From NCBI GenBank assembly GCA_963810095.1, contig CAWEMM010000008.1, positions 32,001 to 96,000 of the forward strand: a stretch of DNA of 64,000 bases, written 5' to 3'. This stretch comes from an uncultured Chloroflexia bacterium (GTDB taxonomy: Bacteria; Chloroflexota; Anaerolineae; CG2-30-64-16). The notes under the pieces are model-generated. The model searched no databases. It worked only from the letters and a program-made list of their open reading frames with translations, and had not been told where the DNA came from. Below, one piece after another: positions 9,677 to 61,788 of the stretch; position 1 is the first letter of the stretch, and the number at the start of each line of letters is the position of its first letter. A program made the position numbers and the translations under genes.

Positions 9677-9763
9677 AACACAAAGACACAAGGGCACGAA
9701 GAGACCTGGTATCCGACAAGGACCAGGTCTTCGTTTTCTTGGTGCCTTTGTGCCTTTGTGTTT
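9677..9763. repeat. Long imperfect inverted repeat after lysS
   Basis: aacacaaagacacaagggcac-gaagagacctggt...accaggtcttc..gtgcctttgtgcctttgtgtt. Confidence 0.6.
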
Positions 9764-9775
9764 AGAATAGTCGCC

Positions 9776-11974: not shown

Positions 11975-12138
11975 ACGCCCCTCCCCGTTTGTGTTCCTCA
12001 AGACAGAACCCGCCGGACCCTCCGTGTATGCTTCCCGAGTGAATGATATTTGTCGAGACACAGAAGAAGGTCATTCACAAATGCGATACTCACATATTCA
12101 CTAACGAAGTTCGTCACGATCGGGGAGCGAGAAGAAGA

Positions 12139-14015: not shown

Positions 14016-17000
14016 CGTCGGGCGCCCGGCCAAATGCTCCCGCCGCCGGCACCCCGGCGACCTTCCAGCGCCTGCTCGCGCAGGTGCTCGGGCAGCGCCG
14101 TCCGCCCTCGGCAACCTACCGCATGCAGTTCAACGCGGACTTCACGTTGGACCACGCGGTGGCGCTCGTTCCCTATCTCCACGATCTCGGCATCAGCGAC
14201 CTCTATGCGTCGCCCCTGTTCGCCGCTCGAGCCGGCAGCACGCACGGGTACGACGTGTGCGATCCGACACGGATCAGCATCGCCGTCGGGGGCGAGGAGG
14301 CACTGGACCGGCTGGCCCGGGTGCTGGGCGAACACGGGATGGGCCTGGTGCTCGACATTGTGCCCAACCACATGGGGATCAATGACCCCTGCAACACCTG
14401 GTGGCTCGACGTGTTGGAAAACGGGCCGAGTTCCCTGTACGCGCCGTTCTTCGACGTGGCCTGGGAGCCCTCGAAGCCCGAACTGAAGGACCGCGTCCTG
14501 CTCCCGGTGCTCGAGGATCAGTACGGCGCGGTGCTCGAAGCGGGAAAGCTGAAATTGGCTTTTGCGGAGGGCGGCTTCCGAATTGAGTATTATGACAACC
14601 GCTTCCCGGTGGCGCCGGGCACCTATGCGCCGGTTCTGCAAGAGTGGTTGGTCCAGCTGCGAGCGGCCGGCGATGGCGACGCCGGCGGCCGGGACGAAGC
14701 CGCGCTGGAGCTGGAGAGCATCATCACCGCAGTCGGGTATCTGCCGGGCCGGAACGAACGCGACGAAGAACGGAAGCTGGAACGCGCCCGCGAGAAGGAA
14801 AGCATCAAGCGCCGGCTGGCAGCCGTCTGGCAGTCAAGCCCGGCCGCCTTCGGCTCCCTCCAGCGGGCCCTGACCTACTTCAACGGCGACCCGCACGACC
14901 CCCAGAGCTTCGATCCGCTGGACGCGCTGCTCGAAAAGCAGCCTTACCGGCTCGCCTACTGGCGGGTGGCCGGCGAAGAGATCAACTACCGCCGCTTCTT
15001 TGACATCCGCGACCTGGCCGCGATCCGGGTCGAAGACCCCCGGGTGTTCGAGGCGACGCACGGGCTGGCGCTGCGCCTGCTGGCCGAGCGCAAGGTGACG
15101 GGGTTGCGCATCGATCACCCGGATGGCCTGTACGATCCGAGGGCGTACTTCCGCCGGCTGCAGCTGGAATACCTGCTCACGGCGCTGGGCCAGGACGGCG
15201 GCGATGGTGAAGCAGCGGCCCGCACGGCCGCAGAAGCCTGGCTCGATGCCGCGCTCGACGCCGCAGGTGAGGGCCGGCAGCAGGACTGGCCCCTGTACGT
15301 GGTGGCGGAGAAGATCCTGTCAGACACGGAGCCGCTGCCGCTCGACTGGGCCGTGGCGGGCACGACGGGCTACGATTTCCTCGCATCGGTCAACGCAGTG
15401 CTCGTGGATCCTGCGGCCGAGGACAGCTTCACGCGAATATATGCCGATTTCGCGACCCCGGCCGGGGCTGGCGCAGGGGCGGATTTCGAGGCGCTGACCG
15501 TGCAAACGCAGCGCCTGATCATGCGCGAGGCACTGGCCAGCGAGATCAACGAACTGAGCCACAGTCTCGAGCGGGTCGCGGAGCGGAACCGGCACACCCG
15601 CGACTTCACGCTCAACAACTTGCGTGACGCCATCCGCAGCCTCGTCGCCTCGCTCGGCGTGTACCGCACGTATATCGACCCCGAGACCAGGACGGTTTCG
15701 GAGCGTGACCGGCACTACGTCGTCGAGGCGGTCCAGCGGGCCGGGGCGCTCTCGCCACACATCGACCCGTCCGTGTTCCGATTTCTGCAAGAGACGCTGT
15801 TGTTGCAGAACCACGAACAGTTTCATGCGGAGGACCGGCTTGCTCTCGGCACCTGGGTCATGAAGTTCCAGCAGATGACCGGACCGGTGATGGCCAAAGG
15901 GGTCGAAGACACGGCCTTCTACCGCTACAACCGGCTGGTTTCGCTGAATGAAGTGGGCGGACACCCGTCGCTCTTTGGCATTGACCCCGGCCAGTTTCAC
16001 CGGGACAACGAGCGCCGGGCACGCCTGTGGCCCCACAGCATGCTGGCAACCTCGACGCACGACAACAAGCGCAGCGAAGATGTCCGCGCGAGGATCGACG
16101 TCTTGAGTGAAATGCCGGGCGAATGGGGCCAGCGCCTGCTGGAGTGGTCCAGCCTCAACGTCGGGCAGAAGGCGCGTGGCGGGGGGGCCGGCGAGCTGCT
16201 CTTGCCCGACCGCAACGACGAGTACCTGCTCTACCAGACGCTCCTCGGCGCGTGGCCGTTTGCCCAAGAGCCAGAACCCGGTTCGCCGTGGGGTCCGCTG
16301 CTGCCGCCCGGCGACAGCAGCGAGTACAGTGCGTTCGCCGCACGCATCGCCCAGTACATGAACAAGGCCGTCAAGGAAGCCAAGGTCCACGGCAGCTGGA
16401 TCAACCCGGACGAGGCGTACGATCGTGGCGCTCCACAGTTTCACCGCTGCACTGCTTGCGCCCGGCCCGGAGAACCGCTTTCTCCAGGCATTTGCGCCCT
16501 TTGCGGCCCGCATCGCGACCCTCGGGCAGGTCAACTCGCTCGCCCAGGTCGCGCTCAAGCTGACGTCGCCGGGCGTGCCCGACACTTACCAGGGCAGCGA
16601 GCTGTGGGACTTCAGCCTGGTCGATCCCGACAACCGGCGGCCGGTGGATTACGAGCGGCGCCGGGAGCTGCTGGCGGGGCTGCCCACGGCGGGGCCGGTC
16701 GGCGACGGGTTCCTGGCCGGGCTGCTCAGCGCGAGCCACAACGGCCGGATCAAGCTGTTCGTCACCGCCCGGCTGCTGGCGCTGCGCCGGGCCGAGCCGG
16801 GCCTGTTCGACGCCTCCGACTACGTGCCGCTCGAGGTGACGGGCAGCGGGGCGGAGCACGTCGTCGCTTTCGCCCGGCGCAGCGGCGGGAAGACGCTGCT
16901 CGTGATCGTGCCCCGGCTGGCGGCGGCGCTGGCGAATGCGGACGGCTGGCCGCTGGGGCCCGCTGCCTGGGGCGACACGGCCGTCATGTTGCCCAATGGG

Positions 17001-17120
17001 CTGCCCATGGACGGGCCGGTCGACGCGCTGACAGGGCGCCCCCTCCGACTCGACGGAGGCCACCTGCCCGTTGGCGAGGCGCTCCGGTCGCTGCCCCTGG
17101 CCGTGCTGGTGGGAGGATAG
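14012..17120 (+). CDS. treY: Malto-oligosyltrehalose synthase, frameshift near 16425
   Basis: ATYRMQF, GSTHGYDV, DIVPNHM, INYRRFFD, GLRIDHPDGL, AKGVEDTAFY, STHDNKRSED, PGVPDTYQGSE, LVDPDNRRPVD. Confidence 0.94.
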
Positions 17121-17143
17121 CGGGAGCGCCGTCGCCCGAGAAA

Positions 17144-17371
17144 ATCCTGAGCGGAGGGCGGTCCGCAGGAGCGCACGCTCGAAGGATGCCGCGCTCTTCA
17201 CAGCGACTGCTTGCGCTCAGATGCGCCAGACGTGGCGACTGCGGCACCCAGCTAAGCTGGCGCTCCGCTCAGGATGCCTGCGCTTGAAGCATCCTTCGAC
17301 TGCAGGCGGTCCGCAGGAGCGCACACCTTCCGGTTGGGGGGCGAGGCACCCGAGGGGTGCCTCGCCCCTAC
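17144..17371. repeat. Cluster of REP-like palindromes and a 20-bp direct repeat
   Basis: atcctgagcggag / ctccgctcaggat and tcgaaggatgc / gcatccttcga inverted pairs; ggcggtccgcaggagcgcac at 17157 and 17305; ggggcgaggcacc..ggtgcctcgcccctac hairpin. Confidence 0.6.
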
Positions 17372-25402: not shown

Positions 25403-26298
25403 TCAGACGCTCTGCGTCTCGGTGAGTACATCGCGAAAAGCGCGCGCGGCCGGGCTGAGAGTACGACCGATAAGCCGCACCCGCGTAAAGGTGCGGCGCA
25501 TATCGAGGCCTTTAATCGGCAGAATCACGAGTCTGCCGAGGCGGAGTTCATCGACGATCGTCGCGCGCGAGACGATCGCCAAACCCAGTCCGGCGGCAAT
25601 TGTTTCCTTGATCGCCTCCGTGCTGCCCAGCTCTACCGTATGCTTCAACTGAATCCCTCTCTGGGCGAGCGCGGCTTCGCCGACTTCGCGCGTGCCTGAA
25701 CCCACCTCGCGAATTAGGAACAGCTGGTCTTCCAGCATGCTGGCCGGCAACGGTTCTGCAGCCGCGGTGCGGACAAGGGGATGGCCTGGGGCTGCGATTA
25801 GGACCAACTCGTCAGGCCGCCACGCTTCACACTCGATGCGTTCGTCGGCGACCGGTCCCTCTACCAGCGCGACGTCCAACTGGTACTCGAGGAGCAGGCC
25901 CAGGATGGTCTGCGTGTTCTGGATCGTGAGGCGCAGGTCGATAGCCGGATGGCTGCTCAGAAAGGCCGCAATGACCGGCGGCAACAAGTAGGCCGCAATC
26001 GTCGTGCTCGATCCGACGCGGAGAGTGCCGCGGTGCAAGCCCCGCAGTGCCTGCAAATCCTCTTCGGCAGTCTGCTCGACAGATAGGATCGCGCGCCCCG
26101 CTCAGCCAGCAGCGCACCCGCCTCGGTAAGAGTCAGCTTGCCCGCGGCGCGCTCGAACAACGGCACACCCAACTGGTTCTCGAGTTCCTTCACGGCCTTA
26201 CTCACGGCGGGCTGACTGATGTACAGAACCTCGGCAGCGCGCGAGAAGCTCATGTGCTGAGCCACGACGGTGAAGATCCGCAGCAGATGCAGCTTCAT
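25403..26298 (-). CDS. LysR family regulator (CysL/YeiE-like), frameshift near 26090
   Basis: SFSRAAEVLYISQPAVSKAVKELE HTH; substrate domain GSSTTIA..REVGSGTR..LGSTEAIK. Confidence 0.9.
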
Positions 26299-26414
26299 GC
26301 CATAACCTCTTCTCATACCCCCATGAAAAAGATGTATTTGAATTATACCTGTTGTTGGAGTAAATTGTCACGAGCACTGCAAGTGGCGTGTAGCGAGTGA
26401 AGGAGTGAGTTGAC

Positions 26415-42562: not shown

Positions 42563-43820
42563 ATGGGACACTCGGGAAAGCCTGAGGTGGTGTGGTCGGT
42601 GCAGGCCCGGCCGGGATGCTCCTGGCCTACCTGCTCGTGACGAACGGCATCTCCGTGCGTGTGCTCGAACGGCATCCGGACTTCAAGCGGGAGTTCCGCG
42701 GGGAAGGCATCCAGCCATCGGTCATGCAGACCCTGGACGAGCTGGGCTTTCTGCCGCACTTGCTTGAGCGAGGGATCGCGGTTTCGGCACACCAGGCGCA
42801 GATCTTCCTCGACGGCCAGCCGGTGGCGACCCTGGACGGCAGCGAGGCGGAGGCGGGGGATTTCGGGCTCATCGTTTTCCAGGAGGGCTTTCTCGAGTTC
42901 CTCCACCAGCAGTGCAGCCAGTACGAACACTACCGGCTGGATATGGGTGTGACGGTGACGGGCATCGTGCGCGAGGATGGCCGGGTGGCGGCGGTCAAGA
43001 GCGCGTGACGCGGGACGGCAAAGAGGCCATTGTCGCAGGGGACTTCTTCGTCACGGCGGCCGGGCGGGGCACCGGCCTGCGCGGCCAGGCCGGGCTCGGC
43101 GCCGAGGTGCTCGAGTCGAGCTTCGATATCTATTGGATGAAGTTCGACCCGGCGGAATTGTTGGGAGGTGACGCCCTCGTCCCGGACGGTTTTCACGCGT
43201 ACCTGCAAGACGAATCCATGTTCATCTTCTACCGGACCTACGACCAGCGCATTCAGGTCGCGTGGGGCAAGCGGGGCTGGAACGCGGCGGGGCTGCGCGA
43301 TCTGGCAGGCCTGAAGACCCAGCTGGTCCGGGAGTCGCCGGCCCGGTTCCGCGCGATGATCGCGCAGCAGTTCTCGGAGCAGACGGAGCGGCAGCTGCTG
43401 AAAGTGGCCTGTGACCGGCTGGATGCGTGGCACGTGCCGGGGATGCTGTTCCTGGGCGACGCGGCGCACACCATGTCGCCGGTCGCGGGCCAGGGCATCA
43501 ACCTGGCAATCCGTGACAGCATCGTGGCTGCGAATCACATGATTCGAGCCCGGGAAGCGGGCAGACCATGGGACAGTGCGATGTGTCAAGCGATCGAGGA
43601 TGAACGGCGACCGGAGGTCGAGGCGATGCAAACGTTCCAGGTGCGGCTGGGGCATCTCATGCTGGGCGCGCCGCGCTTGCAGCGCCGCCTGTTCTTCCGC
43701 TTCGGGCTGCCATTGCTCTCAGCGCTCGGCCTTCGCCAACGGTTCGTGCGCCAGGTCCAGCGAGGCGTGGTGGACCTGCGCGTCGAATACCCTGTACCGC
43801 TACGAGTCGTCGCCGTCTAG
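42563..43820 (+). CDS. FAD-dependent monooxygenase (frameshifted)
   Basis: VGAGPAGM, LERHPDFKREFRGE, LGDAAHTMSPVAGQGINLAIRD. Confidence 0.85.
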
Positions 43821-45708: not shown

Positions 45709-46192
45709 CTACTCCAGAATGTGGCTCAAGCAGCCGCCTGCGCAAGGAGTGCGCCGCGGCGATGGTCTCCTCCGCGTGCGACGCGTCCAGGCAGTGGACA
45801 TAGAGCGTCGCCCTCGTCGTCGACGCCGACCACCAGCTCGCCCGGCGTCACTGAGAGGGCATGGCTGCTGAGCGCGACGCCGAGCTCGCTCTCGCACTCG
45901 GAGGGTATCGCGAGGATGCCGGGCCGGATCGGGAGCCGGGGATTGAGGACGATGGCCGCCACGCCGATACCGCTGCGCACGATATCCAAGGCGAGCAAAC
46001 CGGCATAGCGGGCCAGCGCCCACAACGCCACCGGCAGGCGCCGCAGTCCTCACCGGGGAGCTTGCCGGTCGCAGGAGGAACGCAACGAACGCGGCAATCA
46101 GAAGCCCAACGAACACGTTGTTCCATGCCAGGTTGCCTGACAGCGCCAGGTAGATGGCCGTCACGACTCAGGATCGTCCAGACGTAGCCCAC
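45709..46192 (-). CDS. mnhE: Mrp/Mnh antiporter subunit E (frameshifted)
   Basis: PIRPGILAIP..SVTPGELVV. Confidence 0.85.
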
Positions 46193-46200
46193 CTCTCCCC

Positions 46201-47683
46201 CTATCCGCCCAACACGGCCGCGATATACGATGCGGGCGAGAGCAGCGACGCGCTCACCGCCAGCGACAGGCGCAGCAGTGGCTCGGCCCACAGCCCCAGG
46301 AGCACGCACAGCCCGATCAACAGGGCCGGCGCGACGAGATGATCGCCCGCCGGCTTGGCCTTGTGCCCTTCGGGGAGCGGCTCCCACCAGATGAGCTGGA
46401 AGGCGCGGATCACATACAGCAACGTCAGGATGCCGCCCACGCCGACCAGGAAGACGGCCACGAAGTGCTCGGCCGAGATGCCGCTGCCGAAAACGAGCAG
46501 CTTGCTCACGAAGCCATTCATCGGCGGTATGCCGGCGAGCGCCAGCCCGCCGAGCAGGAACAGGCCGCCGGCAAAGGGCGCGGCCTTCCCAACGCCCGTA
46601 AGTGCGGAAAAGGCGGCCGACTTCGGCGACGCCCGGCTCGCCATCGCGCCGGCCAGCATCAGCATGCCGGCCTTCACGAGGCTGTGATTGACAGTGAAGA
46701 CGATGGCAGCCGTGATCGCGAGCGGCGAGCCCCAGCCGATCGCGACCAGGATGTAGCCGACCTGCGCCAGGGTCGAGTACGCCAGCATCCGCTTGGCGTT
46801 AGTCGCGCCCAGGGCCGTCAGCCCGCCGAAGAGCACGCCGGCCACGCCGAGCACAATCAGCAAGGGCCGCAGCGGGAAAAGCCCTTCCGGGAGCAGCAGC
46901 GTGGTCATGCGCAGGAAGCCGTAGACGCCGACCTTCACGACGACGGAAGAGAGCATGGCGCTGACGGCGGTCGGCGCGGCCGTATGGAAGTCGGGCTGCC
47001 AGAAGTGGAAGGGCACGACCGCGCTCTTGATCATGAAGAAGGCGGTCATGAGCGCCACGGCCGCGGGCAGGAGCGGCGCCGCGGGCTGGGCCGCGATGCG
47101 GCGAGCAAGGTCGGCCAGGTTGAGCGTGCCGTACGACGCGTACAGGCTGCCGGCACGCGAGCAGGAGCAAGACGCCGGCGACCAGGCTCATGTAGAAATA
47201 CTTGTAGGCGGCTTCCACGCCCAGCCGGTCATCGGCCAGGGCCGTCAGACCTGCGCCGGAGATGACAAGGAGCTCGGAGAAGACGAAGATATTGAACAGG
47301 TCGCCGGTGAGCATGACGCCGGTGAGACCCGCACAGAGGGTCAGGAACAGCGGGTAGAACGCCGGGTAACGGATGCACTGGTCGCCTGCGCCGAGGCTGT
47401 AGATGATGCCGGCGACGATCACGGCCTGCGACATGACGGCCATGGTCGCGCCCAGCAGATCGGCCGCGAAAGTGATGCCGTACGGCGCGGGCCAAGTCCC
47501 GAGCTGATAAACGACCGGCCGGCCCTGAGCGCCACACCTCGGCCAACAGCGACGACTGGCTGACGCGCAGGACACCAGTGCGGCGGCGAGCGCCCAGTAG
47601 CCGGCGCCGCGGCCCAGCCGGCGGGCGGCGAGCGCCAGCACCGCGCCGAAGAGCGGGATCAGGACCGGCAAGAGGACGAGCAT
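46201..47683 (-). CDS. mnhD: Mrp/Mnh antiporter subunit D (frameshifted)
   Basis: TGDLFNIFVFSE, KSAVVPFHFWQPD, KRMLAYST, LAGIPPMNGFVSK. Confidence 0.9.
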
Positions 47684-51511: not shown

Positions 51512-51877
51512 TCACGTGGCGTAGTTCTTCCGGTTCTCGCCGCGCACCTTCAGGACAGGGACCGCGAACATGAAGCCCGAGTTAGGGCGGTCCAGGTCAC
51601 CCAGGATCGCCTCCGTTGCGTGGAAGAAAGCATCGAGGTCGACGCGGTCTGGCAGCACGGTGAACAGACTGCGATGGTGCAATTCCTCGCGCTCGAGCAG
51701 GCTGCGCAGACCCGGGAACAGCGGCAAGTCGTCGCGCAGCGCGTTCTGGGCCAGGTACTGGCCGGCGCCGCTGCTTTCGAGGATGGTAATGCCGCCTGCG
51801 CCGGCAGCGTGCCAGCCGTTGATGATATCGTTCAGGCGGTCAGGGTCGAGCAACACGAGCCATACCATTGTTGACAT
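51512..51877 (-). CDS. PII-like small protein
   Basis: GAGGITILESSG..GDLDRPNSGFMFAVPVLKVRG. Confidence 0.7.
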   Translation of the reverse strand: MSTMVWLVLLDPDRLNDIINGWHAAGAGGITILESSGAGQYLAQNALRDDLPLFPGLRSLLEREELHHRSLFTVLPDRVDLDAFFHATEAILGDLDRPNSGFMFAVPVLKVRGENRKNYAT

Positions 51878-51890
51878 GCGAAGTTCACTC

Positions 51891-53115
51891 CTATGCACCA
51901 TTTGAGGCTTGGGGCGCCGGCGCGGCGGGCTTGCGTGCGAAGACGACGCGGAGCAGGATCGGCGTCACAAGCGTGGTGACGAGCACCATGATCACGGCGA
52001 TGGAAATCAGGTCCGGGGGCACGACGCCGTTGATGACGAGCAACTGCGCCACGATCAAGCCGACCTCGCCACGCGAGATCATGCCGACGCCCAGCCTTAA
52101 CGACTCTGCCGCGGGAGAAGCCCCCCAGGAGGGCGCCAGCCCCGCTGCCGAGAACCTTCGAGATCACTGCCACGACCGTGAGGAGCGCTGTCAGGAGCAC
52201 CAGTTCGCCGCGAAGCGCCCAGATGTCAACCTGCAGGCCAATGTTCACGAAGAAGATCGGCACGAAGAAGCCATACGCGAGCGCACTGATGCCCTCCTCG
52301 ATCCGACGGTGCGACCGCGCGCGTCCGGCAAGGATGCCGGCAAGAAATGAACCGGTGATCATGGCGACGTGGCCCACCACCTCGGCCGACCAAGCGAAAA
52401 GCATCGCGACTACCGCTGCCGTAGCCAGCAGTCCCTGGCTGATCGGCAGGTGATCCACCCGATTAAGCAAACGCGGGACCAGGATCCAACCCAGCCCGCC
52501 GAAGAGGGCGACATAGAGCACCACCCGGCCCAACAGGACGGCGATATCAGCCGGGCTTGAGCCACCGCCCGTTGCGATGGCGAGAAATATCGAAAGGAGC
52601 AGTATGACGAGGACATCATCGACTACCGCCGCCCCGAGCAGCGCAACACCTTCGCGGCTGCGCAACACGCCGAGCTCGAGCAGGGTCTGCGCCGAAATGC
52701 TGACGCTCGTTGCGGTGAGGAGCATCCCAATGGCGATCGCCTGGGTCGTCTCATAGCCGAATGGAAGCGCCACGCCCGCGCCCATGACCAGGGGTACGAT
52801 GACGCCAAGAAGGCCCGCAAGGATGACCACTTTCCCGGCCTTGCGCATCTGGCTCAGGTCGGCCTCGAGGCCGGCCAGGAACATGAGCAAGATGACGCCA
52901 AGCTCCGCTAGCTCGGTGATCGTCTCGGGCAGCTGCTCACTGGTGAGGAATGGCAGCGCCTGGATGTTCATGAGCGAGGGGCCCAACAGCAAGCCGGCCA
53001 GGATCTCACCGAGCACGGCCGGCTGGCGAAAGCGCGTGCTGAGGTAGCCCGCAGCCTTGGCAACGGCGATCAGGACACTCAGCTCAAACAGGAGCTGTAA
53101 GACTGGCGACAACAC
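51891..53115 (-). CDS. Cation:proton antiporter (CPA2), frameshift near 52110
   Basis: QPAVLGEILAG, ATSVSISAQTL, AAVVDDV, MISRGEVGL. Confidence 0.9.
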
Positions 53116-53121
53116 AACCTC

Positions 53122-53523
53122 CTACTCACTCGCTTGCCATATCTCGGCCAACCAATCGAAGATCACCCGGTTCAGCAGCTACAGATTGTCGACCTGGCAG
53201 TGCGCTGCTCCGCCGATTTCCTCAGTGAGGATAGCCAGCCGCTTGCGCGGGTTCGGCAGGCGCTCGTACGTCTGCCGCGTCTGCTCCAGCGTCGCCTGCG
53301 CCTCGCTTTCGCCCGCGATGCGGCGGGTCAGGGCCGGCCGGGGAGCCTGCCAGCTCACGGCGTCGCCGTCTCCGATTCGCTCGGCCGCTTGATAGCACAC
53401 TCACGCGTCGCTGCCGCAGACGGCCTGCCGGCCCAGGATCCACGAGAAGTAGTAATCCATATCCTTGTGCTCGAAGCGGTATTTCTCCGCGCTGCGCCGC
53501 GCAACTGGCTGTGCGTCGGTCAT
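53122..53523 (-). pseudogene. Internally deleted alpha/beta-hydrolase remnant with two in-frame stops
   Basis: One frame: DMDYYFSWILG..GSDA-TGA(53403)-VCYQAAERIGDGD...GAAHCQVDNL-TAG(53181)-LLNRVIFDWL; family assignment from recalled motifs. Confidence 0.55.
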
Positions 53524-53551
53524 AACTCACCTCGTCTGACCGGCCGGCGGG

Positions 53552-54541
53552 TCACGGGCCGATCCCCCGGGTATAGAGGAATGCCAGGCCTGCGCCATAG
53601 ACGACGATGATCGCGAGCGCATCGGCTTCCACGAACAGCAGGCGCCGCTCGACACGTGCCAGGTTGCCGATCAGGGCCAACCCAGTGAGCACGAGGCCGA
53701 GGAGCGCGACCAGGGCGAACGCGGGCGGAATGGCGCTCAGGAAGGGGCCGGGCCGGTAGAAGAAGTCGCTAATGCCCAGCGCCAGCATGTTGAACGCGTT
53801 GCTGCCGAAGAGGTTGCCGATAGCGAGGTCGTAGGCGCCCAGACGCACGGCCGCGATCGAGGTCGCGACCTCGGGCAGCGAGGTCACCACGGCCACTAAC
53901 GCCGTGCCGACGAAGCCCGTCCCCATCCCCGTCAGCTCGGCAATCTGCTTGCTGCTGCTCACCAGCCACGGTGAGACCAGCACCAGGATGAGCGTGGCGC
54001 CGCCGAAACCCAACAAGGCCACCCAGAGCCGCGGCACACCGGCCAGCTCTTCCGGCTCGAGCGGCGTCTCACCTGCCGCGGCATTGTTGGACTGTATCAG
54101 GCGCACGCCGATGACATAGGTGGCGATCAGCAACAGGCTGTCGACACCGACATGCCCGATGGTGATGTCGACGTCGGCCAGAATGAAGAATGCGGCCATC
54201 CCGATCAACAAGGTGGCCAGGCTGGCGGTGAGCGCATGCTTCAGGGCGACGCGGCGCAAGATGCGGGCCTGGCGGCCAACGACATCGAGGACGGCCAGCA
54301 GCAGCATGTTGAACATGTTGCTGCCCATCAGGTTACCCGCGGCCAGCTCGGGCACACCCTGGCTAAAGGCGTTGATCGTCGTCAGAAGCTCGGGCAGCGA
54401 GGTCGCGCCCGCGAGCAGCAACGTGCCGACGAAGAGGCGGCCCAGGCCGGTGCGGGCGGCGATCGCATCGCCGTACTGTGCGAGCTTCGTCGCGGCAAAT
54501 ACGAGCAGCGCAGAGCTGCCGAAGAAGATGAGCCAGGGCAC
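53552..54541 (-). CDS. Sodium:calcium exchanger family protein
   Basis: Two alpha-repeats ATSLPEL..GNLMGSNMFN and VTSLPEV..GNLFGSNAFN. Confidence 0.92.
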   Translation of the reverse strand: MPWLIFFGSSALLVFAATKLAQYGDAIAARTGLGRLFVGTLLLAGATSLPELLTTINAFSQGVPELAAGNLMGSNMFNMLLLAVLDVVGRQARILRRVALKHALTASLATLLIGMAAFFILADVDITIGHVGVDSLLLIATYVIGVRLIQSNNAAAGETPLEPEELAGVPRLWVALLGFGGATLILVLVSPWLVSSSKQIAELTGMGTGFVGTALVAVVTSLPEVATSIAAVRLGAYDLAIGNLFGSNAFNMLALGISDFFYRPGPFLSAIPPAFALVALLGLVLTGLALIGNLARVERRLLFVEADALAIIVVYGAGLAFLYTRGIGP

Positions 54542-54905
54542 TAGCGCACTCCGGGATCGGTGGCGCGAGGCGGGGCTCCCTTCATGAAAGCCAGGGGCCA
54601 GGCAGCCCAACTCCCGGCGCCCGAGACTGCGAGATCGCCCACCACCAGTTCGGTGGCCGTCAGGCACTGCTCTGCCGCCGCCTCGATCGGGGACGATGCC
54701 GAACAGGGTGAAGTTGGCCTGTTCGGTTTCAATCCCGAGGTTCTCGACGTTGCGCCGCGCGATGTACAAGCCCGAGCGCGGAACGGCGCCGGTGCGCTCC
54801 TGCGCCTTCGACCGAGGTGAGGCCCACTGCCCCCGACTTTGTCCAGCCTGCCACTACTTCATCGAGGTGATCCACGTCATCCAGGACCAGCATGATCATG
54901 AACAC
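54541..54905 (-). CDS. Second PII-like small protein (frameshifted)
   Basis: MFMIMLVLDDVDHLDEVVAGW..NFTLFGIVP..ATELVVGDL..AWPLAFMKG aligns by eye with 51512-51877. Confidence 0.65.
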
Positions 54906-54908
54906 CTT

Positions 54909-56021
54909 CTACGCCTCCCAGGAACGCTCGCCTTCCATCACGAACTGCGTCAACTCCGAGACGCTCAACTTATCGATACCCAACTTGTCGAGCGTCCGTC
55001 CCCGCCGCCAGTAGTCGGTGCGGTGGATGACGCACGCCAGCCGAATGATGGCATCCATGCCGCGGACCGAAACCCCGAAGTGCTGGCCGAGCGCCGCGAT
55101 GGGCACGAGGCTCATCGGCACGTCTTCGAAGATGTAGCGATGGTTGAGGGTGCTGGGCGCATTGATGCCGAAGTACCCCGGCTGGTTGTGAATCGCTTCG
55201 TTGAGGTCGGCGCCATCCGCATCATACGCCAGCTTAAGCCACTCCAGGCCGGTGCGCCCGCGCAAGCCGAGCGAGGCGGCCACGGTTACGCGCTCGCGGT
55301 CCAACGCTTCGAGCACGCGGGCAACCGACTGCGTCACGCCGTCAATGTAGAACTGAAAGTCGCCGTGTGTGGATTCGATGCGCCCGGCGTTCAGGATGGT
55401 AAGCGCCGGGTGAAAGATGGCGCCCATGTTATTGAGGCCGGTGTGTAGGACACTAACGCCGTCGATGTACTGGGGGTAGGCCGGTAGCAGCGCGTCCAGC
55501 ACCCGCGGCGTGCGCGTCGCAGGTAGTGCGGCGACGGGCACGGCCTCTTTGATGCGGAAGATGCGCGCCTGGGCCGGACCGTCCGAGCGGCTGGCATAGA
55601 TGAACGTTTCGGCCTCGGCGACCGTGACGTCGGCGCGGCAGCCGTGATCGCGCAGCACCTTGTCGAACTCGATGGCGCCCAGTGTGCGGCCCGGATGCAA
55701 GACAAGGATCTGGCCGTCTCGGAGGTGCGGCGCGGCAGCCTTCGCGATATCGGCGTGGGCGGAAGAAGGCACCACCACCATGACCAGGTCGGCAGCGGCG
55801 AGCGCCTCGGCCATGTCGGACGTGACACACCCGATGCGGCCGAAGCCCCGCGGCCCGTCGGCGCTCTCCAAGTCGATGCCGCCGCGTGCCTTGATGGCGG
55901 CTACCCGCTCGGGCGTCCGGTTGTAGAGCGTGACCTGGCAGCCCAACAAGGCCAGGTGCGCGGCCATCGCCTTGCCGCCGTGGCCCGCGCCGATCACGGC
56001 ATAGGTTCGAGATGTCGGCAT
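54909..56021 (-). CDS. NAD/NADP octopine/nopaline (opine) dehydrogenase family protein
   Basis: AVIGAGHGG Rossmann motif, NMGAIFHP, FQFYIDGVT, RYIFEDVP. Confidence 0.9.
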   Translation of the reverse strand: MPTSRTYAVIGAGHGGKAMAAHLALLGCQVTLYNRTPERVAAIKARGGIDLESADGPRGFGRIGCVTSDMAEALAAADLVMVVVPSSAHADIAKAAAPHLRDGQILVLHPGRTLGAIEFDKVLRDHGCRADVTVAEAETFIYASRSDGPAQARIFRIKEAVPVAALPATRTPRVLDALLPAYPQYIDGVSVLHTGLNNMGAIFHPALTILNAGRIESTHGDFQFYIDGVTQSVARVLEALDRERVTVAASLGLRGRTGLEWLKLAYDADGADLNEAIHNQPGYFGINAPSTLNHRYIFEDVPMSLVPIAALGQHFGVSVRGMDAIIRLACVIHRTDYWRRGRTLDKLGIDKLSVSELTQFVMEGERSWEA

Positions 56022-56047
56022 GTTTCCTCCTCCGCGCAGGGGCTTCC

Positions 56048-57394
56048 TCAGTCCTGCGGCGCGCCCTTGGTGCGTCCCATCCAGTCCAGGTTCGCAAACT
56101 CGCCGAAGTGCTCCTTGAAGATGCGGTAGTACTGGAGCTCTTCCTTCGTCCGCAGCTGCCAGCCGTTCGGCAGGACACGCTCGGCCTCGAAGTCGCGATC
56201 CGAAACGCGGCTGCCCGCGTAGTCCGCCAGCAAGTCGCCAACCCCCGCGCCCTCCCAGAACTTGGACTTCGTCCGGGTGAGGATCTTGTCCGGCAGCAGG
56301 CCGATTAAAGCCTGGCGCAGGATCCACTTTTCGACGCCATCGCGCAGCTTCAGCTCGGTGGGTATGCGCAGCGCATAGTCGACGAAATCAAGACCCAGAA
56401 ACGGCACGTGCGCGAGCAGGCCGTGCGCCGCAGAGCAGCGGTCGACCCGCTGCAGCGCGGTGTTGTGGAGGCGCTTCGTGATGTCGAGCAACTCGGAGGT
56501 CAGCGCGGCCTGCGGCATCTCCTTCAGGTAGGCGTAGCCGGCGAACAACTCGTCGCCGCCCTCTCCCGAAAGAGTGGCCGGCGCATAATCCGCCGCGGCG
56601 CGACCGGCGAGGTAGTTGATGATGCTGGAGCGCACCAGCAGGGCATCAAATGACTCGAGGTGATAAATGACAGCCGGAAGCACGGCGAGCATTTCGTCGA
56701 AAGTGACCTCGATCTCGTGGTGTTGCGAGCCGATGAAGGATGCGACCGTGCGAGCCGCGGCCAGATCCGGCGCGCCGCATACTCCTGCCGCAAAGGTGTG
56801 CAAGCGACGCACGGTGCGGGCGGCAAGCGCCGCGATGCCGCTGGAATCGAGGCCCCCCGAGAGCCAACATGCCATGTCGTCCTCGTCCGTGACGCAGTCC
56901 TGCACCGCGGTTGTCATTCGCCGCCGCAAATCCTTCGCAACGCTCGGAAAATCGGCTGCGATGGGTGGTTCGGAATGAAGCCGGTAGAACGGTCGGATCT
57001 CGGCCCCGTCGTACAGGGTGCCGGGAGGCAAGGAACGCACCTCCCTCGAAAATGGCAGGAGCGCCTTGACTTCCGAGGCGAAGTATAGCGCCCCAGCGTC
57101 GCCGTGCGTGTAATACAGCGGCGCAACGCCGAGCGGATCGCGCAGCAGGCTCAACCGGGTCATCTCCGCGGTCGCGCGCGCCATGCGGCCTGAGCCCGCA
57201 CTGTCTTGCGCGGCCTGGGCGCGCTCGAGGGTTTGCCCTGCGAACGCCTGGCTACGCGACCACGCCACGCCCAGGGTCGCGGCCTCGGTCTCGATCACCG
57301 CGCGCCCAGCGGGGCCGCGGTGCGCCTGCACAGCCAACATGGACTGGACGTCGGAACGCGAGCATGGCGGGCTACAGCCAGCGATTGCTGACAT
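56048..57394 (-). CDS. Asparagine-synthetase-like ATP-dependent amide ligase lacking the N-terminal catalytic Cys
   Basis: Starts MSAIAG (AAGGAG RBS); HRGP, RDPLGVAPLYY, FASEVKAL, LSGGLDSS, SGEGGDELFAGY. Confidence 0.87.
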   Translation of the reverse strand: MSAIAGCSPPCSRSDVQSMLAVQAHRGPAGRAVIETEAATLGVAWSRSQAFAGQTLERAQAAQDSAGSGRMARATAEMTRLSLLRDPLGVAPLYYTHGDAGALYFASEVKALLPFSREVRSLPPGTLYDGAEIRPFYRLHSEPPIAADFPSVAKDLRRRMTTAVQDCVTDEDDMACWLSGGLDSSGIAALAARTVRRLHTFAAGVCGAPDLAAARTVASFIGSQHHEIEVTFDEMLAVLPAVIYHLESFDALLVRSSIINYLAGRAAADYAPATLSGEGGDELFAGYAYLKEMPQAALTSELLDITKRLHNTALQRVDRCSAAHGLLAHVPFLGLDFVDYALRIPTELKLRDGVEKWILRQALIGLLPDKILTRTKSKFWEGAGVGDLLADYAGSRVSDRDFEAERVLPNGWQLRTKEELQYYRIFKEHFGEFANLDWMGRTKGAPQD

Positions 57395-57406
57395 TGGTTG
57401 CTCCTT

Positions 57407-59058
57407 CTACTGGCCGGGCAGATCCAGCGCAGCCAGTCGCGTTGCCTCGGGCAAGACCTCCGTGCCGCTTGGCCCGACCGCCACGCAGGCGCCCCGGCGA
57501 TCGATACGCGTCACGACGGACCCGCGCCCGAAGCGGTTGTTGCGCAGCTGCGGCGCGTCGAGGATGCCACTCGTCACGGCGGCGCACAGGGTGCCCGGAT
57601 CAGTAAAGGGATCGTGTACGCCGGTCCCGGCGCGGCCGCCGATCGCTTGGAGTGTCAGCCGAGCTTCTGCCGCCAGCTCGGCGGCGCGTTCCTGCACGCG
57701 CATCGTTTCCAGCATGTCCGGCGCGCCGGCCAGCGCGTTCTCGATGGCCCGCCGCGCCACCTTGCATGCCGCAATCACATCCTCGGCCGTCGCCGCGTGG
57801 TGCGCCTCGGTATGGCCCACGACGTGCACGATATGCGGCTTGAGGGCCATCTGCAGATAAGTCGCTGCGGCCAGGTGGCCGCGTGCGGCCTCGGGATCCA
57901 GCGGGTGGCTCAGCAGGCCGACGCGAACCTGACGGTAGATGCGGAAGTCCTCTCCAGCGAGCGGCTCAATGAGTTGGAGACACGCCTGCATCTTCGCCAG
58001 ATCCATGGCATCGGACAGGCCCGGTGGGCTGTTGAACATGAATTGCGCGATGTAGTCGTGGACGCCGGACGCGCGCGGCGTTGTAGGCGGAGAGATAGGC
58101 GGCAACGACGAAGACGACGTCCGGCGCATCGCGCATGCCCCAGTGATGCGGCTCGTTGAGCTCGACGGGGATATTCGCTCGACCCGTACCAGGCCATCAA
58201 CTCCTGATGGAGACGGATCGACGACGCCAGGTCGTGTGGCCCGCGGCCGTCCATGGCGTTGAACCAGAAGAGCGGCACTGCCGCCCACGCGATGTTGATG
58301 GTATCCACGTACATCTCGGCAAGACGCACGAAGTCGTCAGTTCCCGAGTAGGTGCGCATGAGGGGGAAGTTGCCGCGGCGGCTGGCGGCATAGAGCGCGC
58401 GGTAGTTCTCCGGGCTCCGCACCGGCACCCCGCCGGCGCCGGTGCGCCGCGGGTCCTGGCGCTCCGGATGAAAGAAGTTCTCCTGCGCATCCTGGTCCGT
58501 GCCGAGCGAGATGACGTCGAGCACCTTCGCGTCGGCGATCTGCACGATCCCTGCCAACGTCGCTTCCATCGTCGGCAGGCCGAAATGGTGCCGGATCAGC
58601 GGGTACGGCGCCTTCCAGGCGATCCGCTCGACGGTCGACTGCGGGTAGGCATCCTCAGTTGCGGCTGCGGGGGAACCGCGCAGATATGCGGTTACTTCTT
58701 CAGGCGGCTGCGAGCCGTCGAAAACCCGCTCGAAGAAGCCGATCCTGGCGGCCCGTTCGGCCACGGGCGGCGTGCCGCCGAACGCGAACCGCACCCCACG
58801 CTCGCGGAGGTCGTCGGCCGCCTCGGCGAACTCGGCCAACAGCCGCTCGCCGGTGTCCGGTGTCAGACGGTACGAGATGCCGACGAGGTCCGCGCCTTCA
58901 GTCACCGCTACGTGCAGCACTCGCTCCACCGGTACTGCGGGGCCGAGAAAGACCGTGCGCCAGCCGGCCGCCTCCGCGAGGCGCAGGAAGTTCATCACAC
59001 CCGCGACGTGCACGCACTCCCCTAACGCGGCGGCCACAACCGTCTTCTGTCCCACCAT
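57407..59058 (-). CDS. Cobalamin-binding-domain enzyme (B12 domain + probable TIM-barrel), frameshifts near 58080-58190
   Basis: GECVHVAG (His-on motif variant), GISYRL, FGGT; long conserved-looking C-terminal catalytic region. Confidence 0.8.
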
Positions 59059-59098
59059 AAACGGCGCCCCTCTCACGGAAATTTCATCCGCATTCATC

Positions 59099-59150
59099 TT
59101 GACAAAGGATCATTCCTCCCTATACTACAAGTGTTACTTCCCGGTGTCAA
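59099..59150. promoter_or_regulatory. Overlapping divergent sigma70 promoters
   Basis: Plus: TTGACA 59099, 16 bp, TATACT 59121. Minus: TTGACA (59150-59145), 17 bp, TAGTAT (59127-59122). Confidence 0.65.
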
Positions 59151-59174
59151 GTCGCACCCCAGAAGGAGCGCAAG

Positions 59175-59999
59175 ATGGCGCAAACCGAACCCCTACCCAA
59201 TCTTTTGCTGATGATACGTGGACTGCTGCCCTCGCTCAACGAGCAGGAGCAGAAGGTCGGCCAGTACGTGCTGGACCACCCGTACGAGGTCATCCATCTC
59301 GCCATGGTGGAGCTTGCCGAGCGCTGCGGCGTCGGCGACACGACGATCTTCCGCTTCTGCCGCCGGGTGAAGACGGAGGGGTACCAGGATTTCAAGATCG
59401 CCCTCGCGCAGGAACTGACGCCCGCCAACCCACCCGTGTACGAGGCGGTCGCGGCGGGCGACAGCGCGGCCGCGGCCGCGCAAAAGGCGATCGCCGGCGA
59501 CGTCAAGGCGCTGGAGGACACGCTCCGCGTGCTCGACCTGGCGGCGTTGGACCGGGCCGGCGACGCCCTGCTGCGGGCGCGACGCGTCGACGTCTACGGG
59601 TCGGGCGGCGCCGCGGTCGCCGCACACGAGCTGCAGTACAAGCTGCTGCGGCTCGGGCGTGCGCGCGCTGGCGCTCACCGACGCGCAGATGGAGGTCATG
59701 TCCGCCGGGATGCTCACGGCAGACGACGTGGCGGTGGGGTTTTCGCACTCGGGCACGGCCGCGGACGTGCGTCAGGCGCTGGCCAAGGCGAAAGAGTGCG
59801 GCGCGACCACGATCGCGGTCACCAACCACCCAGCCTCGCCGATCGCACAGCTGGCCGACATCAGCCTCTGCACGGCCGCGCAGGACGCGGTCGGGCATGG
59901 CTATCCGCTGGGCGCACGGGTAGCTCAGGTCGGCCTGATCGACGTGCTGTATACGTGCCTCTTGCTCAAGCAGGGAAATGCGGTCCGAAGCTCAAATAG
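59175..59999 (+). CDS. MurR/RpiR family regulator (HTH + SIS), frameshift near 59658
   Basis: ELAERCGVGDTTIFRFCRRV..GYQDFK; SIS motifs YGSGG, FSHSG, AVTN. Confidence 0.9.
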   Translation: MAQTEPLPNLLLMIRGLLPSLNEQEQKVGQYVLDHPYEVIHLAMVELAERCGVGDTTIFRFCRRVKTEGYQDFKIALAQELTPANPPVYEAVAAGDSAAAAAQKAIAGDVKALEDTLRVLDLAALDRAGDALLRARRVDVYGSGGAAVAAHELQYKLLRLGRARAGAHRRADGGHVRRDAHGRRRGGGVFALGHGRGRASGAGQGERVRRDHDRGHQPPSLADRTAGRHQPLHGRAGRGRAWLSAGRTGSSGRPDRRAVYVPLAQAGKCGPKLK

Positions 60000-60012
60000 T
60001 GGGGAGCCAGCA

Positions 60013-60495
60013 ATGATCGCCTCGTGCATGAAACGCCAGGTGGTGTCGGTTGGGCTGGAGACGACGGCTGAAGAGGCCGCGCGCCTCGTCATGTCGCACC
60101 ACATCGGCACGCTGCCGGTGGTAGATGAGCAGGGCGTGCTGGTCGGGGTCGTCCGCCTGCAAGACCTGCTGCAGGTGTTCATGCCCGACTTTGTGGCGCT
60201 GCTCGACAACATCGACTTCATTCCCAGCTTCGGCGCCGTCGAGATCCTGCAGCCCCACGACCTGCCGGGCGCTCGGAATCGGCCGATGCGAGACCTGATG
60301 CAGGAGCCGGTCTCGGTCGAGCAGACGTCCGGGTTGCTGCGCGCGCTCGCAACACTGTCCAAACACCAGCTGGCGGATCTGCCCGTGGTCAACGACGCGG
60401 GCGCGCTCGTCGGCATCGCCTCGCGCGTGGACATCGCGGCCGAGTTCTTCGCCCGCTGGCTGCAGGCTGCGTCGTCGCAGCGGCCGCAGCGGTGA
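60013..60495 (+). CDS. CBS domain protein
   Basis: HIGTLPVVDEQGVLVGVV; LPVVNDAGALVGIASRVD. Confidence 0.85.
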   Translation: MIASCMKRQVVSVGLETTAEEAARLVMSHHIGTLPVVDEQGVLVGVVRLQDLLQVFMPDFVALLDNIDFIPSFGAVEILQPHDLPGARNRPMRDLMQEPVSVEQTSGLLRALATLSKHQLADLPVVNDAGALVGIASRVDIAAEFFARWLQAASSQRPQR

Positions 60496-61788
60496 ACCTG
60501 TCCCAGTTTGCCGCAACCGCGGTGTTCGTGGCCACGTTTGTCGCCATCCTGTCCGAGCGTCTGCACCGGACGATCGCGGCGATGGCCGGCGCGGGCGTGA
60601 TGCTCGTCGTCGGGATGATCGCTGGGCTTCTACGACCAGGAAGCGGCTCTGCGCGCGATCGACTTCAACACGCTCGGACTGCTGCTCGGCATGATGATCC
60701 TTGTCCGCATGCTGCAGCAGACCGGCTTCTTTCAGTTTGCCGCGATTGCGGTGGGGAAACGGGCGCGCGGCCGCCCGCTCCTGCTCCTTGTCGCGCTGGG
60801 CACGCTCACGACGGTCCTCTCGATGTTCATGGACAACGTGACCACCGTCGTGCTCATCGCGCCGGTGACGATCCTGATCGCCGAGATCCTGGGCATCAGC
60901 CCGATCCCGCTGTTGATGGCTGAGGCGCTGCTTTCCGACACCGGCGGCGTCGCGACCCTGGTGGGCGATCCGCCGAACGTCCTGATCGGGTCGGCCGCCG
61001 GGTTCAGCTTCGTTGCCTTCCTCACCCACCTCGCGCCGATCGTGCTGGTCGCCTGGCTGGTCGCACTCGTCGTGCTGCGGATCGTCTTTCGGCGCGAGCT
61101 CAAGCAGGGGCCGCGGGACGTCGCTGCGCTGCTCGAGATGGACGAACGAGCCGGCCTCCACGATCCGGTCGCGCTGCGGAAGATCCTGATCACGCTGGGC
61201 GGGGTCATCCTGTTGTTCTTCCTGCAGGAGCGGCTGCACCTCGCGCCGGGCGCCATCGCGCTGCTGGGAGCCGCGGCCGCGCTGCTGTGGGTGCGCCCGG
61301 ACGTCGAGGAGACGCTCCGGCACATCGAGTGGCCCGTCCTGCTGTTCTTCGCGGCCCTGTTTGTCGCGACCGGCGGACTGCAGGCTTCAGGCGTTCTGGC
61401 GCTGCTCGCCGACCGGGTGGCGGGTCTCGCCCAGGATGACCTTCTGGCCGCGAGCTTACTCATGCTCTGGCTGGCTGCCGGCATCTCGGCAGTCGTCGAC
61501 AACATCCCGTTTACGATCGCGATGCTGCCGGTCATCGCACAGCTGGGCACGCTGGGCGTAAATGCCGTCCCGCTCTACTGGGCGCTGGCCCTGGGTGCGG
61601 GGTTCGGCGGAAACGGGACGCCGATCGGTTCAACCGCTAACGTAATCACCGTTTCGCTCAGCGAGAAAACCCGCACGCCAATCACGACGCGCATCTGGCT
61701 GCGTTCGGGGCTGCCGGTCATGCTGGCGACGTGCGCGGTTGCGACGTTGATGTTCGTCCTGTTCTTCGGCTGGATGCAGACGCGGTGA
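60492..61788 (+). CDS. ArsB/NhaD (IT superfamily) permease, frameshift near 60630
   Basis: DNVTTV, TLVGDPPN, SAVVDNIPF, GGNGTPIGSTANV. Confidence 0.9.

Follow-up and report, generated by a model that had tools for sequence, protein, structure and literature searches.

A 64,000-nucleotide stretch of DNA from an uncultured Chloroflexia bacterium (contig CAWEMM010000008.1, positions 32,001 to 96,000; hereafter the window) carries on its minus strand three neighboring genes that encode a cobalamin (B12)-binding protein, a ligase related to the asparagine synthetase AsnB, and an opine dehydrogenase (ODH). From sequence comparison across other genomes, we conclude that the predicted ODH and B12 enzyme form a tight pair, with the ligase as a frequent but separable partner. 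We tentatively propose, at somewhat less than an even chance, that these genes belong to an undescribed B12-dependent module that, during salt or ion stress, builds a small nitrogen-containing solute, presumably from the glutamate/aspartate pool. The three genes are arranged as follows.

54909 to 56021, minus strand: ODH gene, intact, 370 amino acids counted from an internal Met
56048 to 57394, minus strand: AsnB-like ligase gene, intact, 448 amino acids
57407 to 59097, minus strand: B12 protein gene, start at 59097 or 59058, in three reading frames

The coordinates of these open reading frames (ORFs) agree with an earlier note on this DNA, which had described three close-packed genes: 12 nt separate the B12 gene from the ligase gene (57407 − 57394 − 1) and 26 nt separate the ligase gene from the ODH gene (56048 − 56021 − 1). 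Pfam domains likewise bear out the enzyme types named there, that is, cobalamin-binding, AsnB-fold, opine dehydrogenase and, for the divergent gene, RpiR.

Genome contigs were scanned with generic AsnB peptide patterns, and 80 loci were kept among the matches listed. Fifteen of these (L001–L015) contain true orthologues of the ligase (43–63% identity); the other 65 AsnB-family loci served as controls. Nine of the 15 orthologous loci are fully flanked, with at least 4 kb on both sides of the ligase gene. Co-occurrence of the three genes in other genomes had been set beforehand as the test by which the three-gene unit could be refuted: the full triad is present in three of the 15 orthologous loci (L002, L004, and L010), which span two phyla, and a match to the B12 protein or the ODH is present in none of the 65 controls. 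Gene order varies among them, being ligase, tandem DarA, B12 gene, and ODH in L002; ODH, B12 gene, and ligase in L004, an Ignavibacteriaceae genome; and B12 gene, ODH, and ligase in L010. Such recurrence elsewhere indicates that the gene arrangement is more than chance. Across the orthologous loci, an ODH gene occurs with the ligase in six of 15 and a B12 gene accompanies it in three of 15; the nine fully flanked loci divide into three triads, one ODH and ligase (L013), one remnant (L001), and four with the ligase alone.

The remnant is informative in that L001 and L002 share approximately 91% DNA identity over their common flank (L001 9491–10076; L002 9419–12712), and L001 is without approximately 2.7 kb comprising the B12 gene and all of the ODH gene except its final 45 codons. 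The ligase, DarA, a PII-like gene, and an exchanger are retained. This gap is either a natural deletion of the ODH–B12 pair or an assembly artefact. Divergence tells a similar story: the ODH and B12 proteins are, respectively, 84 and 83% identical to the window proteins in L002, 74 and 71% in L010, and 52 and 49% in L004, so that the two track one another, whereas the ligase (59, 52, and 49% in L002, L010, and L004) does not track with them. Together, the ligase-only loci and the loss in L001 reduce the triad to a tight ODH–B12 pair plus a looser ligase, and the tracking of identity in the pair points the same way. Co-occurrence, which the earlier note had made the test of its three-gene unit, therefore holds, and an obligate three-gene unit is unsupported. 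The ODH and B12 protein are also found within a single ORF in two relatives (P0268 and P0336), in which the ODH C-terminus runs into the B12 domain; such single ORFs point to possible substrate channelling, with an NAD(P)H enzyme and a radical enzyme as the two partners. As a soft lead, relatives of the ligase and of the B12 protein possibly lie on shared contigs, as their longest-contig sizes are equal for P0015/P0141 (47641), P0085/P0195 (160422), and P0065/P0137 (22394); four further short pairs of equal size could be chance.

Turning to the B12 protein, the window sequence matches the Pfam B12-binding domain (PF02310; 6.5e-10, 39.3 bits against a cut-off of 32.1) and, weakly, Met_asp_mut_E (1.3e-3, 17.7 bits against a cut-off of 26.6). 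With relatives included, the latter match ranges from 17.7 to 22.6 bits, with P0249 alone above the cut-off at 27.5. Evidence on the fold was taken from the intact L002 orthologue rather than from the frame-split window gene. An AlphaFold2 model of this orthologue, built from a 30-sequence alignment (predicted local distance difference test score, pLDDT, 93.9; predicted template-modelling score, pTM, 0.87), has as its best Foldseek match in the PDB glutamate mutase E (1cb7_B; E 1.4e-16, template-modelling (TM) scores 0.59/0.66, 428 columns, 14% identity), followed by ornithine 4,5-aminomutase, methylmalonyl-CoA mutase, and lysine 5,6-aminomutase, the two aminomutases at E values from 6e-12 to 8e-10. 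The N-terminal domain resembles GlmS (1i9c_A; TMt 0.75), and a TIM-barrel substrate domain of the GlmE/MutE type is present in the model, where the sequence signal is weaker. The cobalamin-ligand residue, His17, is nearly invariant among the 30 aligned sequences. Comparison with the glutamate, lysine, and ornithine mutases, a check that the earlier note had proposed, therefore places the modelled orthologue closest to glutamate mutase E.

Fusions among relatives point in the same direction. Three distant relatives, P0279, P0285, and P0292, carry the reactivase GlmL/MutL in the same chain (MutL 7e-76, 2e-82, and 2e-55), and the GlmL model NF040745 matches a fused relative at 2.6e-75, under its cut-off. 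In P0249, the B12 relative is instead fused with a glutathione-synthase/RimK-type ATP-grasp ligase, a second association of this type of mutase with the ATP-dependent formation of an amide on a Glu-like acid. On the basis of the fold matches and the relatives' fusions, the B12 protein is best described as a putative fused GlmS–GlmE-like adenosylcobalamin isomerase from a family without a characterised member. The earlier note had left the B12 domain as serving either a mutase or a methyltransferase; the structural matches and GlmL fusions favor the isomerase, and a corrinoid protein of the methyltransferase type was rejected, as no B12-binding_2 cap domain was detected at E values up to 0.01, the Rossmann domain starts at approximately residue 5, and NCBIfam corrinoid models score 19–34 bits against cut-offs of 215–450.

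The family is large. With the L002 orthologue as the query against 90% clusters, 7363 of 8000 scored candidates matched at E ≤ 0.001, the best 120 relatives being 77–94% identical and approximately 545 amino acids long; at the level of 50% clusters there are 868 members at E ≤ 0.001 and 227 at E ≤ 1e-30. Their source names are either generic or incorrect ('cobalamin-dependent protein', 'methionine synthase', 'methylmalonyl-CoA mutase cobalamin-binding subunit'), and an NCBIfam scan returned no model that covers the protein. Sequence searches of the PDB with a single B12 sequence, a profile, or P0249 aligned the B12 and ATP-grasp domains and left the barrel unaligned, and a search of the ESM Atlas with the homologue P0173 returned unnamed cobalamin-binding clusters with leads to MutL and GlmE clusters at 0.78. 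In a more distant set of paralogues of approximately 620 amino acids (P0307, P0309, P0313, P0318, and P0326), the motif has its canonical form, DPHTxG, and an insert separates the B12 domain from the barrel; for an Atlas cluster of 618 amino acids, the commonest phylum is Bacteroidota.

The ODH is the most readily classified of the three proteins. It matches Octopine_DH (PF02317) at 8e-47 (159.5 bits against a cut-off of 30) and aligns end to end, across residues 3–355, with N-(1-D-carboxyethyl)-L-norvaline dehydrogenase (1bg6; 1.1e-77), in keeping with the earlier assignment as a genuine opine dehydrogenase. The GAGxGG dinucleotide motif, GAGHGG in the window, is invariant in five of five sequences. 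We therefore assign it as a predicted NAD(P)H-dependent opine dehydrogenase of the carboxyethyl-norvaline dehydrogenase type, with a predicted condensation activity; its closest characterised relative prefers neutral amino acids.

The ligase belongs to a family of approximately 447 amino acids that is found, by source names, in several phyla. It matches Asn_synthase (5.5e-61) and a remnant of GATase_7 (6.4e-8, profile positions 80–122 of 123 only), its N-terminal domain being reduced to approximately 150 amino acids. The ligase had earlier been described as lacking the N-terminal Cys, and this holds throughout the aligned relatives: the second residue is Ser, Ala, or Thr in all 22 sequences of one set and all seven of another, and never Cys (0/22 and 0/7). 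There is thus no glutaminase nucleophile, so the ligase must use free ammonia or another amine. The PP-loop SGGLDS is invariant among aligned relatives and the SGEGGDE segment is kept, whereas the E. coli AsnB segment DVTTIR, which mutagenesis is reported to implicate in aspartate binding, reads DALLVR in the ligase. Among solved structures it is closer to E. coli AsnB (1ct9; 5.5e-52) than to beta-lactam synthetase (1jgt; 1.1e-17) or CarA (1q15; 1e-14), and this ranking leaves the lactam formation suggested by the earlier note without special support. Against curated models it scores 325.2 bits for NF006949 (AsnB; E 7e-97, cut-off 499) and 224.5 bits for TIGR01536 (cut-off 267.1).

Two identities for the ligase were rejected: glutamine-hydrolysing AsnB, as there is no Cys nucleophile at position 2, and AsnO, the amidotransferase of N-acetylglutaminylglutamine amide (NAGGN) synthesis, as its score against TIGR03104 is far under the cut-off (105.6 against 570.1 bits). 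A search for longer fused forms passed 44 of 8000 scored candidates, none of them in the ligase subfamily; the best of the 44 are canonical AsnB, 36–47% identical to the ligase. A longer Cys-less subfamily of approximately 490 amino acids, with a fuller N-terminal domain, is present in L011 and L013. At L011 (7680–13017) this long ligase gene is followed by hydantoinase/oxoprolinase B and A genes, and at L013 it is preceded by an ODH gene.

The genomic surroundings link the module to ion homeostasis. Downstream of the ODH gene, the same strand carries the following genes.

54541 to 54899, minus strand: small PII-like gene of approximately 119 amino acids in three frames, with homologues in the same position in L001, L002, and L003
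53552 to 54545, minus strand: Na+/Ca2+ exchanger (CaCA) family transporter, Na_Ca_ex 2.3e-34
51832 to 53115, minus strand: CPA2 family cation:proton antiporter, Na_H_Exchanger 2.8e-55, TIGR00932 9e-55
51512 to 51901, minus strand: second PII-like gene, intact, 129 amino acids
45062 to 50917, minus strand: Mrp-type multisubunit Na+/H+ antiporter genes A, B, D, E, F, and G, several frame-split, identified by Pfam

The first PII-like gene, which is missing from the earlier gene list between the ODH and exchanger genes (54899 to 54541), starts 9 nt past the ODH stop and ends approximately where the exchanger begins (gap of approximately 0 nt). With gaps of 12, 26, 9, and approximately 0 nt and transporter genes downstream, the triad heads a tightly packed ion-transport operon, so the earlier description of a salt-transport operon extends through the PII-like, Na+/Ca2+ exchanger, CPA2, and Mrp genes. 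The exchanger ORF as listed extends to 54769, and homologues align only from approximately residue 57; the protein is 53–70% identical to its counterparts in L001, L002, L003, and L010. The Mrp assignment is based on the Pfam families Proton_antipo_M, MnhB, MNHE, MrpF_PhaF, and PhaG_MnhG_YufB.

This context is conserved beside the ligase elsewhere, in support of the salt and ion setting that had been suggested: tblastn with the window ion-transport and CBS proteins matched six of the 15 orthologous loci and one of the 65 controls. A tandem-domain receptor for cyclic di-AMP (c-di-AMP), DarA (NF058593; 173 bits against a cut-off of 140), is encoded in L001 (9363–10073) and L002 (9291–10001), in the latter between the ligase and the B12 gene, a position that ties the module to c-di-AMP signalling. 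Other ligase neighbors, assigned by Pfam, include a CLC channel (L004), a Na/H exchanger with TrkA (L014), and a K+ channel with TrkA (L015), along with mannosylglycerate-hydrolase-like and glycosyltransferase genes (L005) and glutamine synthetase (L009). The commonest immediate neighbor, in five of 15 loci, is a membrane protein of approximately 190 amino acids identified by Pfam as DUF5698/DUF2179, for which tblastn found no homologue in the window. Its genes are at these positions.

L003, 2136 to 2714: DUF5698/DUF2179 gene
L005, 1891 to 2463: DUF5698/DUF2179 gene
L006, 7397 to 7969: DUF5698/DUF2179 gene
L009, 3660 to 4241: DUF5698/DUF2179 gene
L010, 9380 to 9958: DUF5698/DUF2179 gene

Genes for the small PII-like protein (approximately 120 amino acids) are found repeatedly, either immediately upstream of the Na/Ca-exchanger gene or following the CPA2 gene. 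Pfam P-II matches are weak (E 4e-4 to 0.07, under the cut-off), and the protein may be a signal-binding regulator of antiporters. In L010, a PII-like sequence also forms the C-terminus of a 600-amino-acid DUF389 protein. Outside the window the gene is located as follows.

L001, 10217 to 10576: PII-like gene
L002, 12864 to 13211: PII-like gene
L003, 4437 to 4880: PII-like gene
L010, 15940 to 16311: PII-like gene

On the other side of the triad, a divergent set of features shares the 77-nt gap upstream of the B12 gene and continues on the plus strand.

59099 to 59150, both strands: two overlapping sigma-70-like promoter sites in opposite orientation, within the 77 nt that separate the B12 gene from RpiR
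59175 to 60010, plus strand: RpiR/MurR-type regulator (HTH_6 and SIS), HTH_6 4e-18, frame change near 59655
60013 to 60495, plus strand: CBS-pair protein, CBS 6.8e-23, adjoining the AsnB-like gene in L003, L009, and L010
60691 to 61788, plus strand: CitMHS/ArsB/NhaD-superfamily ion transporter, CitMHS 6.7e-71 from profile position 48

The two promoter-like sites overlap back to back, as had been proposed: the plus-strand site (59099–59126) reads TTGACA-16-TATACT and agrees at 11 of 12 positions, and the minus-strand site (59150–59122) reads TTGACA-17-TAGTAT and agrees at 10 of 12. Within the 7.4 kb from 53400 to 60800 there are three sigma-70-like sites, against 0.6 ± 0.9 in shuffled sequences. 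A role for RpiR as the regulator of the module finds no conservation to support it, as tblastn with both halves of the protein matched none of the 80 loci, including none of the 15 orthologous ones. Past the RpiR frame change and SIS domain there is no stop until the CBS pair; the boundary at 59999 given in the earlier note is thus the end of a frame-shifted ORF and not a gene end. The CBS pair is continuous with RpiR in the window (59175–60495) and is encoded by a separate 155-amino-acid gene in other loci, so that this is either a real RpiR–CBS fusion or a lost stop. The CBS gene and the CitMHS/NhaD transporter form a conserved pair with the ligase in L003, L009, and L010, including loci without B12 or ODH genes; the N-terminus of the CitMHS-type transporter is probably in another frame.

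The sequence state of the window bears on whether the B12 gene is functional. Its three frame segments (59058–58168, 58184–58077, and 58075–57425) are otherwise colinear with the intact orthologue from L002, with which they share 82, 86, and 70% identity, and the aligned stretches contain no stops. Frame-split genes occur elsewhere in the window, including an MrpD-like gene (46201–47683), alpha-amylase genes (12043–17287), and the CitMHS gene; in addition, a LysR gene (25403–26056) is without its HTH, MNHE begins at profile position 43, and FAD_binding_3 begins at profile position 138. Mid-domain starts or ends and overlapping-frame continuations are common, for example at 25403–26316, 42912–43820, 45726–46031, and 46201–47683. 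Such mid-domain breaks across the contig suggest frequent single-base indel errors, and since unrelated genes are split in the same manner, assembly indel error appears likelier than decay for the frame changes in window genes, those of the B12 gene included. That the B12 gene, and hence the module, is a decaying pseudogene in this genome is accordingly a reading that we regard as improbable: it could draw on the frame changes, of which the B12 gene has two, the PII-like gene at least two, and RpiR one, and on L001 as an indication that natural loss of the ODH–B12 pair is possible, but the colinear reading at 70–86% identity without stops, together with the similar splitting of unrelated genes, more closely resembles assembly error.

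Across the whole window, an Rfam search returned two tRNAs only, with no cobalamin or c-di-AMP riboswitch at the gathering score, and a terminator scan found four sites against 4.1 expected, with no excess. Further away on the plus strand (9758–17287), a GH57 gene is followed by two frame-split alpha-amylase-family genes in overlapping frames, the first with CBM48 and DUF3459; these may encode trehalose- or glycogen-related enzymes and represent another solute-related locus.

How the three enzymes might work together can be outlined as follows. The mutase would rearrange a glutamate-type skeleton to a 3-methylaspartate-type skeleton; the AsnB-like enzyme would adenylate and then amidate the beta-carboxylate with free ammonia; and the ODH would reductively join the amine of the resulting amino acid, now neutral and branched, with pyruvate or another 2-oxo acid. 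This exact chemistry and its order are a guess, offered with low confidence. Stated more broadly, the B12 protein could be a new class of adenosylcobalamin carbon-skeleton mutase that works with the ODH and, together with the ligase, yields an amide-bearing N-carboxyalkyl amino acid osmolyte in Chloroflexota and some Ignavibacteria under c-di-AMP/ion-homeostasis control, a proposal that is possible and that we consider rather doubtful as a whole. A candidate product would be a compound of the N-(1-carboxyethyl)-3-methylasparagine type.

Several observations weigh against solute synthesis by the three enzymes together. Four of the nine fully flanked loci (L006, L009, L011, and L012) contain the ligase but neither the B12 gene nor the ODH, and L001 has kept the ligase while its B12 gene and most of its ODH gene are gone, so that a single obligate three-step pathway is unsupported; the ligase is, moreover, only 59% identical to its L002 counterpart against approximately 83% for the ODH and B12 protein. 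Within the B12 protein, Cys replaces the Asp of the DxHxxG motif in this subfamily (G[ED]CVHVxG), the barrel is only 14% identical to GlmE with Met_asp_mut_E under its cut-off in the window, and the window gene is broken by two frame changes. Neither a GlmL nor an adenosyltransferase gene is among the Pfam matches of the scanned window ORFs, and a tblastn search of the window gave no match to the GlmL portion of P0279. The proposed product would be anionic, and proximity to transporter genes may stem from membership of a common regulon and not of a common pathway.

In another account, the genes encode separate salt- or alkali-stress enzymes within one regulon: the ligase would be an ammonia-dependent Asn synthetase, supplying asparagine as a solute or nitrogen store or detoxifying ammonia, the ODH a fermentative NADH sink, and the B12 enzyme unrelated. 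We consider this fairly unlikely. The proximity of the ligase to true AsnB (1ct9 and NF006949), its 36–47% identity to canonical long forms, its presence alone beside ion transporters in L003, L006, and L009, its retention in L001, and its independent divergence are all consistent with such an arrangement; a contiguous triad in three shuffled orders across two phyla, the ODH–B12 single ORFs, and the fusion of the mutase to an ATP-grasp ligase in relatives are not readily explained by it, and the ligase itself scores too low for either curated AsnB model (325 bits against a cut-off of 499, and 224.5 against 267.1) and carries DALLVR in place of the segment reported to bear on aspartate binding.

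A catabolic role for the ODH–B12 pair appears less likely again. Here the mutase would rearrange an amino acid and an NAD-dependent dehydrogenase would oxidise the product, or the ODH would cleave an imported opine-like compound, with the ligase unrelated. Lysine and ornithine fermentation pathways pair a B12 mutase with a dehydrogenase, the Foldseek matches extend to ornithine 4,5- and lysine 5,6-aminomutases, and the carriers are by name mostly anaerobic fermenters (Anaerolineales and Ignavibacteriaceae). However, no conserved Lys for pyridoxal phosphate is found among the invariant or nearly invariant B12-domain columns, the neighborhoods have no recurring genes for thiolases, lyases, or uptake, and the conserved neighbors are ion transporters and not nutrient importers, while an ATP-consuming ligase, adjacent or fused as the ATP-grasp domain of P0249, suits biosynthesis. 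Very improbable, in our assessment, is a staphylopine-like aminopolycarboxylate chelator of the opine type, with the CitMHS and Na/Ca-exchanger transporters as the presumed carriers of the metal complex or of divalent cations. Opine metallophore pathways end with an ODH, CitMHS-family carriers move metal-citrate complexes, and the CaCA family handles Ca2+; yet Pfam scans of the window and neighboring ORFs found no nicotianamine-synthase-like (CntL) domain, no ABC importer or TonB genes recur, and the c-di-AMP receptor and the CPA2, Mrp, K+ channel, and CLC channel partners point to monovalent-ion and osmotic control.

Returning to the proposed solute module, each of the three enzymes is in a known superfamily, and the B12 family is the most novel part. 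A search of the freely accessible literature found no paper linking a B12 isomerase, an AsnB-like ligase, and an ODH, in line with the earlier note, which knew of no characterised pathway with this combination. If the osmolyte proposal is true, B12 chemistry would for the first time be part of a route to a compatible solute. To our knowledge, few kinds of adenosylcobalamin isomerase have been described, and the substrate of this family, which is large, highly conserved, without a curated model, and 14% identical to the nearest structure, would add a reaction to B12 enzymology. We know of no described osmolyte for Anaerolineae-type bacteria; an osmolyte product would help to explain their salt and ammonia tolerance, and the link to the c-di-AMP receptor would tie a second messenger to solute synthesis.

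The closest known systems compare as follows. Glutamate mutase (GlmS/GlmE with GlmL), the best structural match, shares with the window B12 protein a cobalamin-binding Rossmann domain with a conserved His and a TIM barrel, and GlmL is fused to some relatives; unlike it, the window family carries both subunits in one chain of approximately 545 amino acids with the B12 domain first, has Cys for the DxHxxG Asp, and has no NCBIfam match, and its Pfam MutE match is under the cut-off in the window. E. coli AsnB (1ct9) is the closest solved relative of the ligase, with which it shares the PP-loop SGGLDS, the SGEG-DE segment, and a C-terminal Lys-containing segment, whereas the window ligase is without the N-terminal Cys, has the shortened N-terminal domain, and has DALLVR for DVTTIR. 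Beta-lactam synthetase and CarA are also Cys-less AsnB-fold enzymes that act on secondary-amine carboxylates, but they are much further than AsnB from the ligase, and no clavam or carbapenem genes lie nearby. The norvaline dehydrogenase of Arthrobacter (1bg6) matches the ODH in its end-to-end alignment, Octopine_DH domain, and GAGHGG dinucleotide fold, and differs in that the window-type ODH is adjacent to or fused with a B12 isomerase.

Two pathways resemble the proposed module as a whole. In the NAGGN pathway, the amidotransferase AsnO and the ligase Ngg make the osmolyte N-acetylglutaminylglutamine amide, so that here too an AsnB-family enzyme and an ATP-dependent ligase lead to an amide-type compatible solute under salt stress; AsnO, however, uses glutamine via a Cys, and the pathway is not known to include a B12 enzyme or an ODH. 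Pyrrolysine synthesis by PylB, PylC, and PylD is similar in logic, in that a radical mutase gives a methyl-branched amino acid, an ATP ligase forms an amide, and an NAD dehydrogenase finishes the product. Its enzymes belong to entirely different families (radical S-adenosylmethionine, ATP-grasp, and the PylD fold), and the likeness drawn here is one of logic.

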